From a virus, in IMG/VR virus record IMGVR_UViG_3300045988_017782, positions 1 to 5,828 of that record: a stretch of DNA of 5,828 nucleotides, one strand, 5' to 3'. The translations under genes were made by a program, and so were the position numbers. This document shows, one piece after another, positions 56 to 4,617 of this stretch. The first letter of the stretch is position 1; every line of letters begins with the position of its first letter. The notes below the pieces were generated by a model. That model ran no database searches and was not told the origin of the DNA. It saw only the letters and a program-made list of their open reading frames with translations.

Positions 56-1640
56 GGGTGATACTTTCAGCGTGGATACAGCGGCAATCATCCGAATGAC
101 CACACCGAAATATCCCGTTTTCGATGACGCGTACATCGATTTCTATTATTTCTACTGTCCGAACAGGATCCTTTGGGATAACTTCAAAAGATTCATGGGT
201 GAAGCAGACGAAGAACCATGGATGCCGACAAAAACGTACAGTGTGCCAAAAATCAGAATTGTGGGAAACCCAAACGCAGAAAACCAGCCAGAAGCATACA
301 AAGGGCCAAAAACGCAAAGCATCCTAGACTATATGGGAGTACCGACACACCTAAACGAAAAAGAAAACAGCAACGATATTGAAGTCAATGCACTACCAGT
401 AAGAGCATACATCAAAATATGGAACGAATTCTTCAGAGACCAAAACGTAGATAATCCGGCAACATATCAAAAAGGAGATGAAGAAATAAAATACTTCGAC
501 AGAGGAGACAACGGATACGTAGGTGCACAAACCGGAAAAGAATACCTAGACGCATACACAGGCGGCCCATGTCTCCCGGTCTCAAAATTCCACGACTACT
601 TCACGTCATGCCTGCCGTATCCTCAGCGTGGGCCGGAAGTATCAATTGCACTGACAGGAAATGCACCGGTAAGACCATACGAAGATACAAACCTAAAAAA
701 CATAAGCCGCGGAGGAGAAATCAGCTACTTACTGGGAACTCCAAGCGCAACATTAGGATTATCTAATGTGGGTGGAGCAGGGGGTATAGGAAACCCGGTA
801 AAACTGGGCGTAAACGAAGGGAATGAAAACGTCACAGAAAGAAGTGCAGCATACCTGGGCGCAGACCTGCAGAACGTCGAAGCCGCAACCATCAACCAGC
901 TCCGGCAGGCATTCGCAGTTCAGCACTATTACGAAGCACTGGCAAGAGGTGGCAGTCGGTACCGCGAGCAGGTAAGAGCAATTTTTGGTGTAAGCATTAG
1001 CGACAAAACCGTACAGATACCGGAGTATCTGGGTGGTGGACGCTATCACGTGAACATCAATCAGATAATTCAGACCTCAGGACAGCAGACCGAAGCAGAC
1101 ACACCTATCGGTGAAACCGGTGCAATGTCTGTCACGCCTATCAACGAAAGTTCTTTCACGAAAAGTTTTGAGGAGCATGGTTTCGTAATCGGCGTTATGT
1201 GCGTTCGCCATAACCGAAGCTATCAACAGGGACTGGAAAGATTCTGGAGCCGAAGCGACCGCCTCGACTACTATTTCCCGCAGTTCGCAAATTTAGGCGA
1301 ACAACCTGTCAAGAAGAAAGAAATCATGCTGACCGGCACAAGCACAGACGATGAAACATTCGGTTACCAGGAGAGCTGGGCCGAATACCGCATGAAGCCA
1401 GACAGAGTAAGCGGCAAAATGCGGAGCAATGCGGAAGGCACACTGGACTTCTGGCACTATGCAGACAACTACGAAACCGTACCGACACTAAGCCAAGAGT
1501 GGATGAACGAGGGCAAAGCCGAAATTGCAAGAACACTGATTGTTCAGAATGAACCACAATTTTTCGGAGCAATCAGAGTAATGAACAAAACAACGAGGTG
1601 TATGCCGCTGTACAGCGTGCCGGGCCTGGAAAAGCTGTAA
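3..1640 (+). CDS. VP1: Major capsid protein VP1 (phiX174 F-like), C-terminal 545 codons; same gene as 5689..5828 across the circular junction
   Basis: The frame is open from the window edge. Codons 3..71 read TTFDAGKLIPFYVDEVLPGDTFS, upstream of the tracked 72..1640 ORF and in phase with ATG 5689 once the 5,773-nt circle is closed. FDAGxLIPxxxDEVLPGDTF is the conserved N-terminal signature of microvirus capsid proteins. Joined length is 574 aa. Tandem stops TAA TAA lie at 1638..1643. Confidence 0.96.
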   Translation, partial: TTFDAGKLIPFYVDEVLPGDTFSVDTAAIIRMTTPKYPVFDDAYIDFYYFYCPNRILWDNFKRFMGEADEEPWMPTKTYSVPKIRIVGNPNAENQPEAYKGPKTQSILDYMGVPTHLNEKENSNDIEVNALPVRAYIKIWNEFFRDQNVDNPATYQKGDEEIKYFDRGDNGYVGAQTGKEYLDAYTGGPCLPVSKFHDYFTSCLPYPQRGPEVSIALTGNAPVRPYEDTNLKNISRGGEISYLLGTPSATLGLSNVGGAGGIGNPVKLGVNEGNENVTERSAAYLGADLQNVEAATINQLRQAFAVQHYYEALARGGSRYREQVRAIFGVSISDKTVQIPEYLGGGRYHVNINQIIQTSGQQTEADTPIGETGAMSVTPINESSFTKSFEEHGFVIGVMCVRHNRSYQQGLERFWSRSDRLDYYFPQFANLGEQPVKKKEIMLTGTSTDDETFGYQESWAEYRMKPDRVSGKMRSNAEGTLDFWHYADNYETVPTLSQEWMNEGKAEIARTLIVQNEPQFFGAIRVMNKTTRCMPLYSVPGLEKL

Positions 1641-1682: not shown

Positions 1683-2498
1683 ATGACAGGAATAGGAGCA
1701 ACGCTAGCAAAGGCCGGAACATGGCTTGCAAGTCATCCAGAAGTCGTAACCACAGGAATGTCACTAATTGGCAACGGACTATCAAACTACTTTGGACAGA
1801 AAAGCGAAAACCAGAGCCAAGGAAGCAACATGAGCCAGAGCCAAGGCGGGGGACAAAGCACATCCATGAGCGAGGGCGGCACAAACGACCAGCAAATTAT
1901 GGACTACCTCAACAGATACTATCAATGGCAGGGCGGACAAAACGCATTCCAGAGCAAAACAAACAGGCAAAACATGTTAATGCAGATGGGCTATAACACG
2001 CTAGGAGCAATTCAGCAGGGAATTTATAACCACATCGAGCAAAACGCGGCAATGTCGTACAACAGCGCCGAAGCACTGGCTAACAGAAACTTCCAAGAGC
2101 GTATGAGCAATACAGCATACCAAAGAGCGGTAGCAGACATGCGAAAAGCAGGGCTGAACCCGATTTTGGCATACGCACAAGGCGGCGCAAGCACGCCGGG
2201 AGGCTCAGGCGCAACAATCACAGGCGCAAGCATGGGAATGCCAGCATCAAGCGCCCTGGGAGTATCTACGCTAAATGGCAACGTGCCAAACAGCTACTTT
2301 AACCGATCTGAAAGTAAGTCACAGTGGTACCAGCTAGCAGAAGCCGTGGGCAGTCAAATGAGTTCAGGCTATAGCAGTCCAGTACAGCTGACAGAAGACT
2401 TACTCAAAACCTATAAACAAATGGAAAATACAGACAAAACCGTACCGTTTGAAGCAGGTGGAGGCAAATTCCATACAGGAGGAGGAAGAAAAAAGTGA
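1683..2498 (+). CDS. VP2: Minor capsid / DNA pilot protein VP2 (phiX174 H analogue)
   Basis: 271-aa ORF directly after VP1. The motif [22 protein letters not shown] (nt 2109..2174) is the conserved core I recognise from gokushovirus VP2 proteins. It also has a Q/S/G low-complexity N-terminal third and a Gly-rich C-terminus. Confidence 0.88.
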
Positions 2499-3514
2499 GT
2501 TGTTACAAGCCATTAATAAGGCTGTACAACCCGGACAACAAGGAAATCAGCGGACGAGTGTATTCACTCGCCCGCTTTTCTCAGATAAGCGGGAAACAGC
2601 TAAAGTATGAAGATTTGATGTATAATCCGAAAGTTATGTTAATACCATGCGGGCAATGTATTGGATGCAGAATCCGACAGCGTGAGGACTGGACAACACG
2701 AATCGAGCTAGAAGCAAGAGATTACCCAAAAGAACAAGTATGGTTTATCACACTAACTTATGATGATGAGCATATACCAGGCATGATAGTAAAAACAGGT
2801 GAAATCATGCGAAAAGTACAGTACACATGGAAGCCAGGAGAGAAGCGTCCAGACAGCGTACAAATTCTACTATATGAGGATATTCAAAAATTCTTAAAAC
2901 GTCTCAGGAAAGCTTACAGGGGCAAATTACGCTATTTTGTAGCGGGTGAATACGGAGAGCAAACAGCGAGACCGCACTATCACATGATACTGTACGGTTG
3001 GAAACCGACAGACCTAGAAAATCTATACAAAATCCATCACAACGGATACTATAACAGCAAGTGGCTGGCAGACCTATGGGGCATGGGTCAGATACAAATA
3101 GCACAGGCGGTTCCAGAAACCTATAGATATGTTGCAGGATACGTTACAAAAAAAATGTACAAGATAGACGGAAAGAAAGCCAATGTGTACTACGAATTGG
3201 GACAAACGAAGCCTTTTGCATGCATGAGCTTAAAGCCAGGCCTCGGAGATCGCTATTATCAAGAGCACAAAGCAGAGATCTGGAGACAAGGGTACATTCA
3301 ATGCACCAACGGAAAACAGGCACAAATTCCAAGATACTACGAAAAACAGATGGAAGCAGAAAACCCACAAAGACTATGGAGAATCAAACAGAACCGTCAG
3401 CTGAGAGCTATAGAGCAAAAAAAGCTTCAGTTGGAAAATCAGGAATATAAAACAGTCCTAGAGACAAAAGAACGTGTCATCAAAAAACAGACGAAAAAGC
3501 GTGGTATTTTATAA
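2495..3514 (+). CDS. VP4: Rolling-circle replication initiator VP4 (HUH endonuclease, phiX174 A-like)
   Basis: GTG start at 2495 overlaps the VP2 stop (GTGA). The SD GGAGGAGG lies at 2479..2486. Rep motifs: CGQCIGCR cysteine cluster (aa 52-59), motif 1 FITLTYD (from nt 2744), HUH motif [10 protein letters not shown] (His 161 at nt 2975), and two-tyrosine motif 3 YVAGYVTKK (Tyr 212 at nt 3128, Tyr 216 at nt 3140). Confidence 0.95.
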
Positions 3515-3527
3515 TTGGTGTCACCTA

Positions 3528-3557
3528 GCCCAGTACCTATCAAGTAAGGTACTGGGC
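3528..3557 (+). terminator. Perfect 11-bp stem-loop just after VP4 (putative terminator of the long rightward transcript, or another structural signal)
   Basis: GCCCAGTACCT (3528..3538) is the exact reverse complement of AGGTACTGGGC (3547..3557), with the 8-nt loop ATCAAGTA. It is followed by ATTATTATTC, T-containing but not a clean U-tract. Confidence 0.55.
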
Positions 3558-3571
3558 ATTATTATTCTAAT

Positions 3572-3621
3572 CGCGCACACACGTACACGCGAAAAGTACA
3601 CGCGCACGCGTGCGCACGTAT
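3572..3621. repeat. CpG-dense alternating pyrimidine-purine tracts with internal palindrome and direct repeats
   Basis: 3572..3591 (20 nt) and 3596..3621 (26 nt) alternate Y-R without a break, separated by AAAA. GTACACGCG occurs twice (3583..3591, 3596..3604). A perfect 14-bp palindrome GCGCACGCGTGCGC lies at 3602..3615. Confidence 0.9.
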
Positions 3622-3657
3622 TATAATATAACTTGTTGTAGTCGTAGTAGTAGAGTA

Positions 3658-3821
3658 TGTTGAAAAGTAGAAAAGTATAATTTTAAAACGTTAGAGCGTT
3701 AAAAATAAACAAAAAACAATGTTGAAAGATTTGTTGAAAACTTGTTGAATTGTTGAAACACTCTATTGTGCTAAAGTTTAACAATGTTGAAATGTTGAAA
3801 ACTATGTTGAAAATGTTGAAA
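3658..3821 (+). repeat. Iteron-like array: nine direct copies of TGTTGAA(A/T)
   Basis: Copies at 3658..3665, 3720..3727, 3732..3739, 3743..3750 (TGTTGAAT), 3751..3758, 3785..3792, 3793..3800, 3805..3812 and 3814..3821, all in one orientation. The two 4-copy clusters each open with AACAATGTTGAAA (3715..3727, 3780..3792). No ORF longer than about 9 codons crosses the array. Confidence 0.9.
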
Positions 3822-3860
3822 AGCCAATAGAAGCGGTCCGGAATCGAGCGGGAAAGTCAC

Positions 3861-3907
3861 GGCCGCGCTTCGCTGGAAGTTGCGCCGCGTAGCGCGCAAC
3901 GGCGGCC
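3861..3907. other. GC-rich nested inverted repeats (candidate ssDNA structural element)
   Basis: Outer 6-bp stem: GGCCGC (3861..3866) with GCGGCC (3902..3907). Inner 7-bp stem: GTTGCGC (3879..3885) with GCGCAAC (3894..3900), loop of 8 nt. A small CTTC/GAAG hairpin lies at 3868..3879. This is a GC island inside an otherwise AT-rich intergenic region. Confidence 0.5.
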
Positions 3908-3945
3908 ATTCAATGAAAAGTTCTGCAAAAACTTCGAAAAAAAAC

Positions 3946-3974
3946 TTGACAAAATCCAAAAAATATGATAGAAT
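3946..3974 (+). promoter_or_regulatory. Near-consensus sigma70/sigmaA promoter with extended -10 (P1)
   Basis: -35 TTGACA at 3946..3951, a 17-nt spacer, TG at 3966..3967, and -10 TAGAAT at 3969..3974. An A-rich, UP-like stretch lies upstream (3929..3944). An SD and ATG follow within 30 nt. Confidence 0.75.
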
Positions 3975-4001
3975 ATAATCAGAGAAAGGAAGGTGTCAAA
4001 G

Positions 4002-4181
4002 ATGACGCACACATACGAACTTAAAAAATTTGAAGATGACGGAAGCATAACCACGGTACTAAAACTCAGCGCAGAACCAAAATATGCAAAACAAAGAGCG
4101 GAAGATTACGCAAGTAGACATCCCGGAATGTACAGCCTAGAAAAAACAGAAACAGTAAAAATGTACTTTAACCGGGGTTGA
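4002..4181 (+). CDS. Hypothetical 59-aa protein (accessory; own promoter and terminator)
   Basis: ATG at 4002 lies 8 nt after the SD AAAGGAAGG (3985..3993). I prefer it to the in-frame GTG at 3993, which sits inside the SD. No transmembrane segment and no motif I recognise. The gene is bracketed by P1 and a canonical terminator. Confidence 0.7.
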   Translation: MTHTYELKKFEDDGSITTVLKLSAEPKYAKQRAEDYASRHPGMYSLEKTETVKMYFNRG

Positions 4182-4198
4182 CAGCCCCGGTTTTTTTT
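4170..4198 (+). terminator. Canonical rho-independent terminator
   Basis: An 8-bp stem joins AACCGGGG (4170..4177) to CCCCGGTT (4185..4192) with the 7-nt loop TTGACAG. A run of 8 T follows (4191..4198). The stop codon TGA (4179..4181) sits in the loop. Confidence 0.85.
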
Positions 4199-4206
4199 GG
4201 TACAAT
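4178..4206 (+). promoter_or_regulatory. Second near-consensus promoter with extended -10 (P2), embedded in the terminator
   Basis: -35 TTGACA at 4178..4183 (the terminator loop), a 17-nt spacer (4184..4200), TG at 4198..4199, and -10 TACAAT at 4201..4206. The leader AGAGAAAGGAAG (4217..4228) is identical to the one after P1 (3981..3992). Confidence 0.65.
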
Positions 4207-4233: not shown

Positions 4234-4617
4234 ATGAAGCACATAATTTTTATGAAAGCAGAGTACGGGCAGGTTAGCCCGCACTTCAAAGCAAAAGAAT
4301 TTCAGTCCAAAGACAAAAGCAAATATCTGTTAATCGCATCAGAGCTAATCGAAACACTGGAAACAATTAGGGAACATTTCAATGCGCCTATTACAATCAA
4401 CAGCGGATACCGTACACCGAACTGGAATGCAAAAGTAGGTGGAGCGCCAAATTCATACCACTGCAAAGGGATGGCGGCAGATATCGTAGTAAAAGGACAT
4501 GGCAGTCAAGAAGTCGCAAAATACGCAGATAGCATCATGAAGCAAGGCGGCGTGATAAGATACACAAACTTTACTCACATTGATGTGCGTGAAGAACGAT
4601 ACAGAAAGGGGGTGTAA
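4234..4617 (+). CDS. Zinc D-Ala-D-Ala / peptidoglycan peptidase, M15 family (Peptidase_M15_3-like; putative endolysin)
   Basis: 127-aa ORF with SD GGAAG 5 nt upstream. The signature SGYRTPNWNAKVGGAPNSYHCKGMAADI plus FTHIDVR matches the LAS-type zinc site H-x6-D ... H (His 76 at nt 4459, Asp 83 at nt 4480, His 115 at nt 4576). No signal peptide or transmembrane helix. Confidence 0.88.
   Translation: MKHIIFMKAEYGQVSPHFKAKEFQSKDKSKYLLIASELIETLETIREHFNAPITINSGYRTPNWNAKVGGAPNSYHCKGMAADIVVKGHGSQEVAKYADSIMKQGGVIRYTNFTHIDVREERYRKGV

Follow-up and report, generated by a model that had tools for sequence, protein, structure and literature searches.

The window studied here (the whole stretch of DNA analysed, 5828 nt, IMG/VR record IMGVR_UViG_3300045988_017782) is a gokushovirus-type microvirus genome with all of its genes on the + strand. 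Its sole long non-coding stretch (3515–4001) carries an array of short direct repeats. These are probably clustered DnaA boxes, part of a module on the phage that copies or mimics the basal unwinding system (BUS) of a host chromosome origin. The repeats are best read as 8–9-bp DnaA boxes rather than as iterons for a phage replication initiator (Rep), and together with an adjacent run of TAG trinucleotides they appear to form a DnaA-box/DnaA-trio unwinding module. By this evidence, the phage probably recruits the master replication initiator of its host. The BUS itself is known in bacteria; its presence in a rolling-circle single-stranded DNA (ssDNA) phage is new.

Repeat array and parts of the putative unwinding module

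A search of both strands of the window for TGTTGAAW gave nine matches, all on the + strand, with starts at 3658, 3720, 3732, 3743 (TGTTGAAT), 3751, 3785, 3793, 3805 and 3814. No copy was present on either strand outside 3658–3821. The original prediction, made by a model from the letters of the sequence, had described nine same-orientation copies confined to this region, and the count on both strands agrees with it. The comparison with composition-preserving shuffles that it had proposed gave a clear enrichment: in 200 dinucleotide-preserving shuffles the mean was 0.63 and the maximum 4, with 0/200 reaching nine. The spacings within the two four-box clusters are 12/11/8 and 8/12/9 nt, as claimed, and the 13-mer AACAATGTTGAAA said to open each cluster was found at 3715–3727 and 3780–3792. 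Likewise, GAAAAGTA was found at 3591, 3662 and 3670, and the "GTA-rich run" was present, reading TTG TTG TAG TCG TAG TAG TAG (3633–3653). The duplication of a four-repeat unit fared less well, since the internal spacing differs between the two clusters, and a duplication across relatives is unsupported because the first box of cluster 3 is poorly conserved in the consensus of 59 relatives. Directly adjoining the first box, at an offset of 8 nt, is a tenth box of degenerate sequence, AGTAGAAAA (3666–3674).

Reference BUS sequences were taken from Table S1 of the supplement to Pelliciari et al. 2021 (NAR). The + strand of the window carries, in order, TATTATAATATAAC, TTG TTG TAG TCG TAG TAG TAG, AGTA, TGTTGAAA and AGTAGAAAA. 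The Bacillus subtilis BUS, written 3'→5' in Pelliciari et al. 2021, is AATAGGTGT-TTAGGTGT-CCGG-GATGATAATGAAGATGAT; read 5'→3', its trio strand consists of an AT-rich stretch, TAG TAG AAG TAA TAG TAG, GGCC, TGTGGATT and TGTGGATAA. The order of parts, their strand relation, the 4-nt gap, the 8-nt tandem-box offset and the 12-nt spacer are the same in the window as in B. subtilis and S. aureus. The phage element thus resembles the B. subtilis incC BUS with its DnaA-box#6/#7 (Richardson et al. 2016/2019, Pelliciari et al. 2021) in parts, order and strand, and, as in the bacterial BUS, further box clusters lie beyond the tandem boxes.

The element has every sequence feature by which a BUS is recognized and, of the defining traits that could be compared here, lacks only the chromosomal location. 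A BUS requires at least three trios with the consensus 3'-GAT-5', and the window contains three consecutive trios with a central A (TAG TAG TAG, 3645–3653) and a further TAG at 3639. In B. subtilis, the three proximal trios suffice and are needed for strand separation, and it is their counterparts in the phages that are invariant. The TTG TTG ahead of the trios breaks the trio rule of a central A. Bacterial BUS gaps have a mean of 4 bp, with about 12–13 bp separating the trios from the distal box; in the window the gap is 4 nt and the distal-box spacer 12 nt. Orientation of the two proximal boxes is essential in B. subtilis, where reversal inactivates incC. The phage boxes lie 3' of the trios and have the orientation in which a consensus box reads 5'-TGTGGATAA-3' on the trio strand, as in B. 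subtilis, S. aureus and other entries of Table S1, and this orientation is identical in the window and all relatives.

The BUS box rule allows up to 2 mismatches to consensus in the proximal box and up to 4 in the second, weaker tandem box. In the window, the proximal box TGTTGAAAA has 2 mismatches to TGTGGATAA and 1 to TGTGNAWAA, and AGTAGAAAA has 3 mismatches. The form present in most relatives, TGTGGAAAA, has 1 and 0 mismatches to TGTGGATAA and TGTGNAWAA, respectively; it is the reverse complement of TTTTCCACA and fits perfectly the relaxed DnaA-box consensus TTWTNCACA as used in PMC7561715. The AT-rich element TATTATAATATAAC (3619–3632) is shorter than those of the bacterial origins compared. 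Bacterial BUSs typically lie in the dnaA-dnaN spacer, whereas this element belongs to an ssDNA phage of 5.8 kb with rolling-circle replication, where it is placed between the gene for Rep (VP4) and a small open reading frame (ORF). It also differs from them in that its AT-rich element is short and GC-clamped, its gap is not GC-rich, and a phage-specific 9-mer, AACTTGTTG, precedes the trios. This 9-mer has a second copy at 3739–3747, inside box cluster 2, is conserved at 8–9 of 9 in 59 relatives, and is missing from bacterial oriC contexts.

The published lenient BUS rule, (NAN)x3 followed by a spacer of 0–16 and a box with ≤2 mismatches, gave 15 matches in the window and 7.9 in shuffles. As this rule is non-discriminating in this AT-rich genome, a strict version requiring TAGx3 was used. 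The strict arrangement (TAGTAGTAG, ≤16 nt, box with ≤2 mismatches) occurs once in the window, compared with 0/2000 shuffles.

Conservation in microviruses and correspondence to bacterial origins

The relatives comprise 80 from IMG/VR, gathered via VP4, and four GenBank genomes; conservation statistics refer to 59 distinct relatives, and the layout comparison to 63 sequences. The non-coding region is conserved to the same degree as the genes. Upstream of the first repeat, all relatives share an AT-rich TATAATATAAC, TTG TTG TAG NNG TAG TAG TAG and four variable bases, followed by (T/A)GTGGAAA and then AGTTGA(A/T)AA, so that the proximal boxes in most relatives read TGTGGAAA-AGTTGA(A/T)AA. By per-column information content, the trios and boxes are near-invariant, and conservation dips sharply, to 1–4 of 9, at the 4-nt gap. 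Gap variants include AGTA, GGTA, GCAA, AGGT, AGCC and others, and the gap is 4 nt long in nearly all of the 63 sequences: its length is kept and its sequence is free. A search of relatives for the repeats, as the original prediction had proposed, showed the array to be kept as well, with 6–11 copies of NGTNGANAN per genome (536 forward and 1 reverse in total). Position 4 of these 536 boxes is T in 439, G in 85, A in 11 and C in 1. A relative with VP4 at 54% identity (locus L004) has the same arrangement, and its array includes a perfect TGTGGATAA.

The element is present in >120 IMG/VR microvirus contigs, and in 44 GenBank genomes, all of them from mammalian gut, among 3750 records with a VP4 relative. 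Among the GenBank matches listed, none had an origin, repeat or binding-site annotation under the element; most had no feature there, and a few had a hypothetical-protein annotation. The array had been called undescribed for Microviridae, in agreement with the literature searched, which held no report tying DnaA boxes or DnaA-trios to microviruses or gokushoviruses, nor any of DnaA-trios in phage genomes.

To locate bacterial counterparts, 185,579 species-representative bacterial genomes were scanned with a 27-nt pattern built from the phage relatives, TAGTAGNNNNNGTKGAAAWGTTGAWAA, which has 19 fixed and 3 two-fold positions. About one chance match is expected over ~1.2e12 positions (our own arithmetic, assuming uniform composition). 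The scan returned 95 matches, mostly in large Firmicutes contigs, in Oscillospiraceae, Ruminococcus, Lachnospiraceae, Selenomonas, Phascolarctobacterium and Clostridium. A tblastn analysis of the flanks found both dnaA and dnaN at 65 loci, one of the two at 25 (where the second gene was cut off by the 8-kb locus) and neither at 5; VP1 or VP4 was found beside 0/95. The identities of DnaA and DnaN in L119, and of DnaN in L133, were verified with Pfam. Since the matches lie mostly beside dnaA/dnaN, the phage sequence amounts to a signature of chromosomal dnaA-dnaN origins. The bacterial contexts read AT-rich, (TAG)n, GGGC, boxes, with the AT-rich stretch in the same position as in the phages. Many of them are preceded by the reverse complement of ATGAAATTT, suggestive of a gene that starts on the opposite strand. 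None of the 95 matches is a microvirus or prophage, compared with >120 IMG/VR microvirus contigs containing the pattern, so that the scan gave no indication that members of this phage clade integrate.

The closest correspondence is with origins of the Ruminococcus/Oscillospiraceae type, fifteen of which were used for the host box statistics. In a Ruminococcus flavefaciens metagenome-assembled genome (JAMPAU010000003, L119, 5367–6850), the 1.48-kb dnaA-dnaN spacer is dense with TTTTCAACA and ends in ...TTTTCAAC-TTTTCCACA-GCCC-CTACTACTACTACTA-AT-rich-dnaN. Unusually long dnaA-dnaN spacers with dozens of TTTTCAACA boxes are found at L119, L126, L118, L133 and L174. The phage box variant TGTTGAAA is the same as TTTTCAACA, and the position frequencies agree (phage/host): position 1 T.82/.81; position 4 T.83/.82 and G.16/.17; position 7 A.97/.90; position 9 A.58/.64 and G.25/.26. 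Phages and hosts share box spacings of 8, 9 and 11 nt; a spacing of 12 nt is frequent in phages (73 cases) and less so in hosts (8 cases). The host origins also have a box cluster ~45 nt from the BUS boxes, similar to phage cluster 2, and the BUS core TGTGGAAA-AGTTGAAAA is common to these origins and most phage relatives. Unlike the phage boxes, which all have one orientation, those of the host origins are mixed (212:66). The R. flavefaciens origin spans ~1.5 kb with dozens of boxes, compared with ~200 nt and 10 boxes in the phage, and the two have no extended homology beyond motifs. The best local similarity of the phage region is to Oscillospiraceae oriC regions (~75% over 90–126 nt, at motif level only), which does not suffice to establish capture from one particular host oriC.

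Box type was then compared with the DnaA recognition helix across the bacterial genomes, leaving out of the count both boxes used in the search pattern. Genomes whose DnaA has RDHSTI(V/K)Y(A/S), with Tyr at the position equivalent to E. coli His439 and Ser at 435, contained 180 TGTTGAWA and 29 TGTGGAWA boxes, compared with 35 and 58 for genomes with the His-containing RDH(T/S)TV(I/L)HA (Fisher p = 6e-17; Mann–Whitney on per-genome fractions p = 4e-7; both statistics ignore phylogeny). In E. coli DnaA, residues 432–435 and 438–439 make base-specific contacts (PMC5043019). The covariation of the box variant with Ser/Tyr at 435/439 looks like a lineage-specific shift of DnaA specificity, and it supports the reading of TGTTGAAA as a genuine lineage-specific DnaA box.

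The host is most likely a member of the Ruminococcus/Oscillospiraceae-type Clostridia with a "Tyr-type" DnaA preferring TGTTGAAA. A sigma-A-type promoter and Shine–Dalgarno sequence downstream of the array (3946–4001) fit a Firmicutes host. The hosts of gut Microviridae have long been hard to identify. A TGTTGAAA-type box pointing to a Tyr-type DnaA, as in Ruminococcus and Oscillospiraceae, may offer a sequence-based host call for uncultured gut microviruses, and a by-product is the description of a DnaA-box variant that is lineage-specific and covaries with the DnaA recognition helix. The phage element would also constitute a compact natural minimal BUS of ~200 nt, which may be a tool for studies of origin opening in bacteria that are hard to manipulate.

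Proposed role and competing explanations

From the observed architecture and its conservation, the equivalence to oriC and the match to the box variant of the host clade, we infer that DnaA binds and unwinds the element. Host DnaA-ATP would bind the ~ten co-oriented boxes (3658–3822) on the double-stranded replicative form. It would oligomerise from the two proximal boxes (3658–3674), across the 4-nt gap, onto the + strand trios (3639–3653), and its spreading would melt the adjoining AT-rich 14-mer (3619–3632). The + strand was taken as the packaged strand because all genes are on it. As there is no complementary copy of the boxes, they cannot be double-stranded in virion DNA, and the module would act after complementary-strand synthesis. 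The DnaA-dependent "A site" of plasmid R6K (ABC primosome) and the origins for complementary-strand synthesis in phiX174, G4 and M13 are cis sites that use host initiation or priming; they act on single-stranded DNA, where hairpins make the box double-stranded. The phage would resemble these small replicons in exploiting a host initiation pathway via a cis site. Unlike theirs, its boxes are all co-oriented and cannot pair, which should restrict the action of the element to double-stranded DNA.

Three outcomes of DnaA engagement were considered. The bubble could (a) load the host helicase, giving a theta-type start of replicative-form replication or maintenance; it could (b) present single-stranded DNA to VP4 or promote extrusion of a nearby hairpin; or (c) the array could cause collateral DnaA titration, which would be unavoidable at high copy number. 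Most likely, replicative-form replication is started or assisted by the bubble. We rank (a) and (b) jointly above (c), the sequence being unable to separate the first two. The short GC-clamped AT-rich element and the presence of AACTTGTTG by the trios fit a small confined bubble, as under (b).

In the textbook view, microviruses replicate by rolling circle and require nothing beyond their own Rep and host elongation and priming factors. A conserved, host-matched oriC module in a gut gokushovirus clade implies engagement of DnaA, the host master initiator, which would revise this model of replication and suggest a mechanism for persistence or host shut-off. More speculatively, the clade may have two modes on a 5.8-kb genome, VP4 rolling circle and a DnaA-dependent, oriC-type start. 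Its DNA might then replicate, or persist as a plasmid-like minichromosome, under host cell-cycle control, giving a carrier state without integration and disturbing host initiation through DnaA uptake. We regard this larger scheme as tentative.

Several points weigh against a DnaA-dependent unwinding module. Microviruses have a complete rolling-circle system of their own (VP4) and a widely conserved candidate origin hairpin, which leaves the need for a second, DnaA-type element unexplained. The proximal box of the window, TGTTGAAAA, differs from TTATCCACA by 2 mismatches and from TTWTNCACA by 1, the second proximal box has 3 mismatches, and both are weaker here than in most relatives (position 4 of box 1 is T, not G; box 2 is AGTAGAAAA). 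The fourth trio, TCG, is without a central A, and the gap in the window is not GC-rich. The AT-rich element, just 14 nt and GC-clamped, is short for the loading of two helicases. The bacterial loci were retrieved by a phage-derived pattern, so that the likeness of the 27-nt core is by construction, and the independent evidence is limited to the position of the loci, the wider box arrays and the DnaA covariation. The covariation statistics are uncorrected for phylogeny, the host call is likely but indirect, and the case as a whole is built on sequence inference.

Among the alternatives, the one that best survives holds that the array is a DnaA sink that shuts off host initiation, or a regulator of the downstream promoter, with no opening of DNA. 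In B. subtilis, the DnaA-box regions of oriC show incompatibility with the chromosome when present in multiple copies, which gave them the names incA/B/C, and DnaA can regulate transcription where boxes cluster. The phage has ~ten co-oriented boxes on a molecule that reaches high copy number, and a strong promoter lies downstream of the array. Like E. coli datA and the B. subtilis titration clusters, it has dense DnaA boxes outside oriC that could sequester DnaA; those loci, unlike the phage element, are without the unwinding geometry of trios, gap and AT-rich element. Titration or regulation needs no trios, exact 4-nt gap, fixed orientation or AT-rich element, yet all of these are conserved as tightly as the boxes, and 125 nt separate the last box from the -35 hexamer downstream. 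A box cluster of the kind expected for a datA-like locus is present in the window, with conserved trios and gap pointing beyond titration, and we consider a sink or regulator improbable as the whole explanation.

Less probable still is a host origin-binding factor other than DnaA for which TGTTGAAA would be the site, at the host oriC and on the phage alike. The motif departs from the canonical DnaA box at a normally required position (G to T), and the evidence for the ligand is all indirect. However, most relatives have TGTGGAAAA next to the trios, a perfect relaxed-consensus box into which the motif grades, and the L004 relative has TGTGGATAA. Furthermore, it is placed exactly where a BUS has its DnaA boxes, and the T/G preference covaries with base-contacting DnaA residues.

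The original prediction had likened the array to the iterons of plasmid origins and to the Rep-binding sites of circular Rep-encoding ssDNA (CRESS) viruses, and had named VP4, a host factor or the 59-aa product of the downstream ORF as ligands. An origin-type array of initiator binding sites, and the host factor, were upheld; iterons of the plasmid or CRESS type were not, and a phage-encoded ligand, whether VP4 or the 59-aa protein, is very unlikely. The repeats do lie about one helical turn apart, beside the Rep gene and in the sole long non-coding region, and, as in iteron plasmid and CRESS/geminivirus origins, they are direct repeats of an initiator site near an AT-rich region within a replication control region. 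Against this, the units are 8–9 bp rather than the 17–22 bp of iterons, and the CRESS arrangement, in which iterons abut the nick-site stem-loop, is absent, the hairpin at 3528–3557 ending 100 nt short of the first box. Phages whose VP4 proteins are 54–94% identical share one motif, with no covariation, and the same arrays occur in bacterial dnaA-dnaN spacers without phage genes. An unchanged motif at 54% VP4 identity and arrays in spacers that lack VP4 make VP4 an unlikely ligand, and the inferred ligand is instead the host initiator. VP4 is an HUH rolling-circle protein (REP_ORF2-G2P), for whose own site the hairpin, widespread in gokushoviruses, is the better candidate. The 59-aa protein was rejected as ligand: a homologue is present in only 25/136 element-bearing phage loci. 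It belongs to no Pfam family. A plasmid BLAST of the array gave just trivial 40-nt matches inside Acinetobacter ORFs.

Two further explanations are highly improbable. The repeats could be "0A boxes" (TGNCGAA) through which Spo0A would silence the phage when its host sporulates, as happens with Bacillus phage phi29. At B. subtilis oriC, Spo0A boxes overlap DnaA boxes (PMC7561715). In addition, TGTTGAA is one base off TGTCGAA, the likely hosts are in the Clostridia, which include spore formers, and the phi29 arrays are similar in presenting several sites for a host master regulator with the half-motif TGTnGAA. The 0A-box consensus has C fixed at position 4. This C is found in 1/536 phage boxes, and Spo0A leaves the trios, gap and AT-rich element unexplained, the trios and gap having no counterpart in the phi29 arrays. 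The other, equally remote, is that the element is a functionless passenger piece of host oriC gained by recombination, in line with the local similarity to Oscillospiraceae oriC regions given above; it occupies the same place in >160 diverged genomes, its conservation follows the functional parts (trios and boxes invariant, gap and inter-cluster DNA free), and non-coding DNA is costly in a 5.8-kb genome.

Neighbouring elements and genome context

Features of the window are listed in Table 1. Other Pfam assignments were Phage_ORF5 and a Chlamydia-phage-type scaffold protein. The nearest GenBank relatives are uncultured gokushoviruses from faeces of pig, human and monkey. An Rfam search of the whole window at a permissive E-value gave two weak chance matches within VP4 and none in the non-coding region, and a scan for tRNA and tmRNA found none.

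Table 1. Features of the 5828-nt window and of the putative unwinding module
Feature	Position	Strand	Remarks
Major capsid protein	72–1640	+	Pfam Phage_F
VP4 Rep	2495–3514	+	Pfam REP_ORF2-G2P; HUH rolling-circle protein
Hairpin	3528–3557	+	Directly after VP4 stop; 11-bp stem; loop core TATCAAGTA; DNA fold z = -3.3
Alternating purine-pyrimidine (CG/CA)n tract	3572–3618		~47 nt, GC-rich; bounds AT-rich element; contains repeats and an inverted repeat
AT-rich 14-mer TATTATAATATAAC	3619–3632		Presumed DNA unwinding element; beyond trios, on the opposite side from the boxes
9-mer AACTTGTTG	3630–3638	+	Invariant, phage-specific; directly 5' of trios
Putative DnaA-trio run TAG TCG TAG TAG TAG	3639–3653	+	3'-GAT-5' on viral strand
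Gap AGTA	3654–3657		4 nt, trios to first box
Tandem trio-proximal boxes TGTTGAAA + AGTAGAAAA	3658–3674	+	Putative equivalent of B. subtilis DnaA-box#7/#6
Imperfect palindrome TTTTAAAACGTTAGAGCGTTAAAAA	3681–3705		Centred on AACGTTAGAGCGTT; between BUS boxes and cluster 2
Putative DnaA-box cluster 2	3720–3759	+	Four boxes: 3720, 3732, 3743, 3751
Putative DnaA-box cluster 3	3785–3822	+	Four boxes: 3785, 3793, 3805, 3814
Sigma-70/sigma-A-type promoter, strong	3946–3974	+	TTGACA, 17 nt, TG-n-TAGAAT; 125 nt past last box
M15 peptidase	4234–4617	+	Pfam

The AACG..AGCG core of the imperfect palindrome is kept at 7–9 of 9, and has no counterpart in the bacterial origins examined. A GC-rich stretch at 3822–3905 was rejected as a structured element, with an ssDNA fold z = -0.24 relative to shuffles and poor conservation.

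The hairpin neighbours the module and is probably separate from it. In relatives, its stem shows compensatory changes and its loop TATCAAGTA is invariant, being kept even where the stem is lost. Hairpin-like sequence is present in 111 GenBank microviruses, including 4.1–4.5 kb genomes from Ciona, bee, robin and peat, a far wider distribution than that of the box/trio element (111 compared with 44 GenBank genomes). The DnaA module is a clade-specific addition ~60 nt from the hairpin, and the far more widespread hairpin is more likely to be the ancestral origin used by VP4, unless it is a terminator. As a candidate rolling-circle origin it may hold the VP4 nick site, for which AACTTGTTG and the hairpin loop TATCAAGTA are both candidates, a choice that sequence does not settle. 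The reverse complement of the loop, TACTTGATA, resembles the phiX174 origin core, AACTTG^ATA, a likeness too short to weigh.

Beside the AT-rich element, the (CG/CA)n tract may act as a clamp on the melted bubble or form Z-DNA. It is of the CGCGCACGCG type in most relatives, and elsewhere is replaced by other GC-rich sequence, CGCAAGCTCACAAGCGCC-like or CAAGGGATAACGCTTTGCC-like. In a "blood" microvirus (MZ821031, L003, 1240–1400), an insertion of ~150–170 nt that includes a strong GC hairpin, GGGGGAGACTAAAGGTCTCCCCC, separates the hairpin from the GC-rich tract, which indicates that the region between hairpin and DnaA module tolerates insertions.

The promoter at 3946–3974 is probably outside the module and drives the small ORF (4002–4181) and downstream genes. 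This promoter and a strong Shine–Dalgarno sequence serve a small ORF that is replaced by unrelated small ORFs in the relatives L001, L002 and L004, and the small-ORF slot behaves as a variable cassette. After the 59-aa ORF, a terminator-like hairpin, AACCGGGGTTGACAGCCCCGGTT, is followed by a T run (4170–4206). Within this hairpin lies the -35 hexamer TTGACA belonging to another promoter-like site (TTGACA, 17 nt, TG-n-TACAAT), which closely precedes the M15 peptidase gene.

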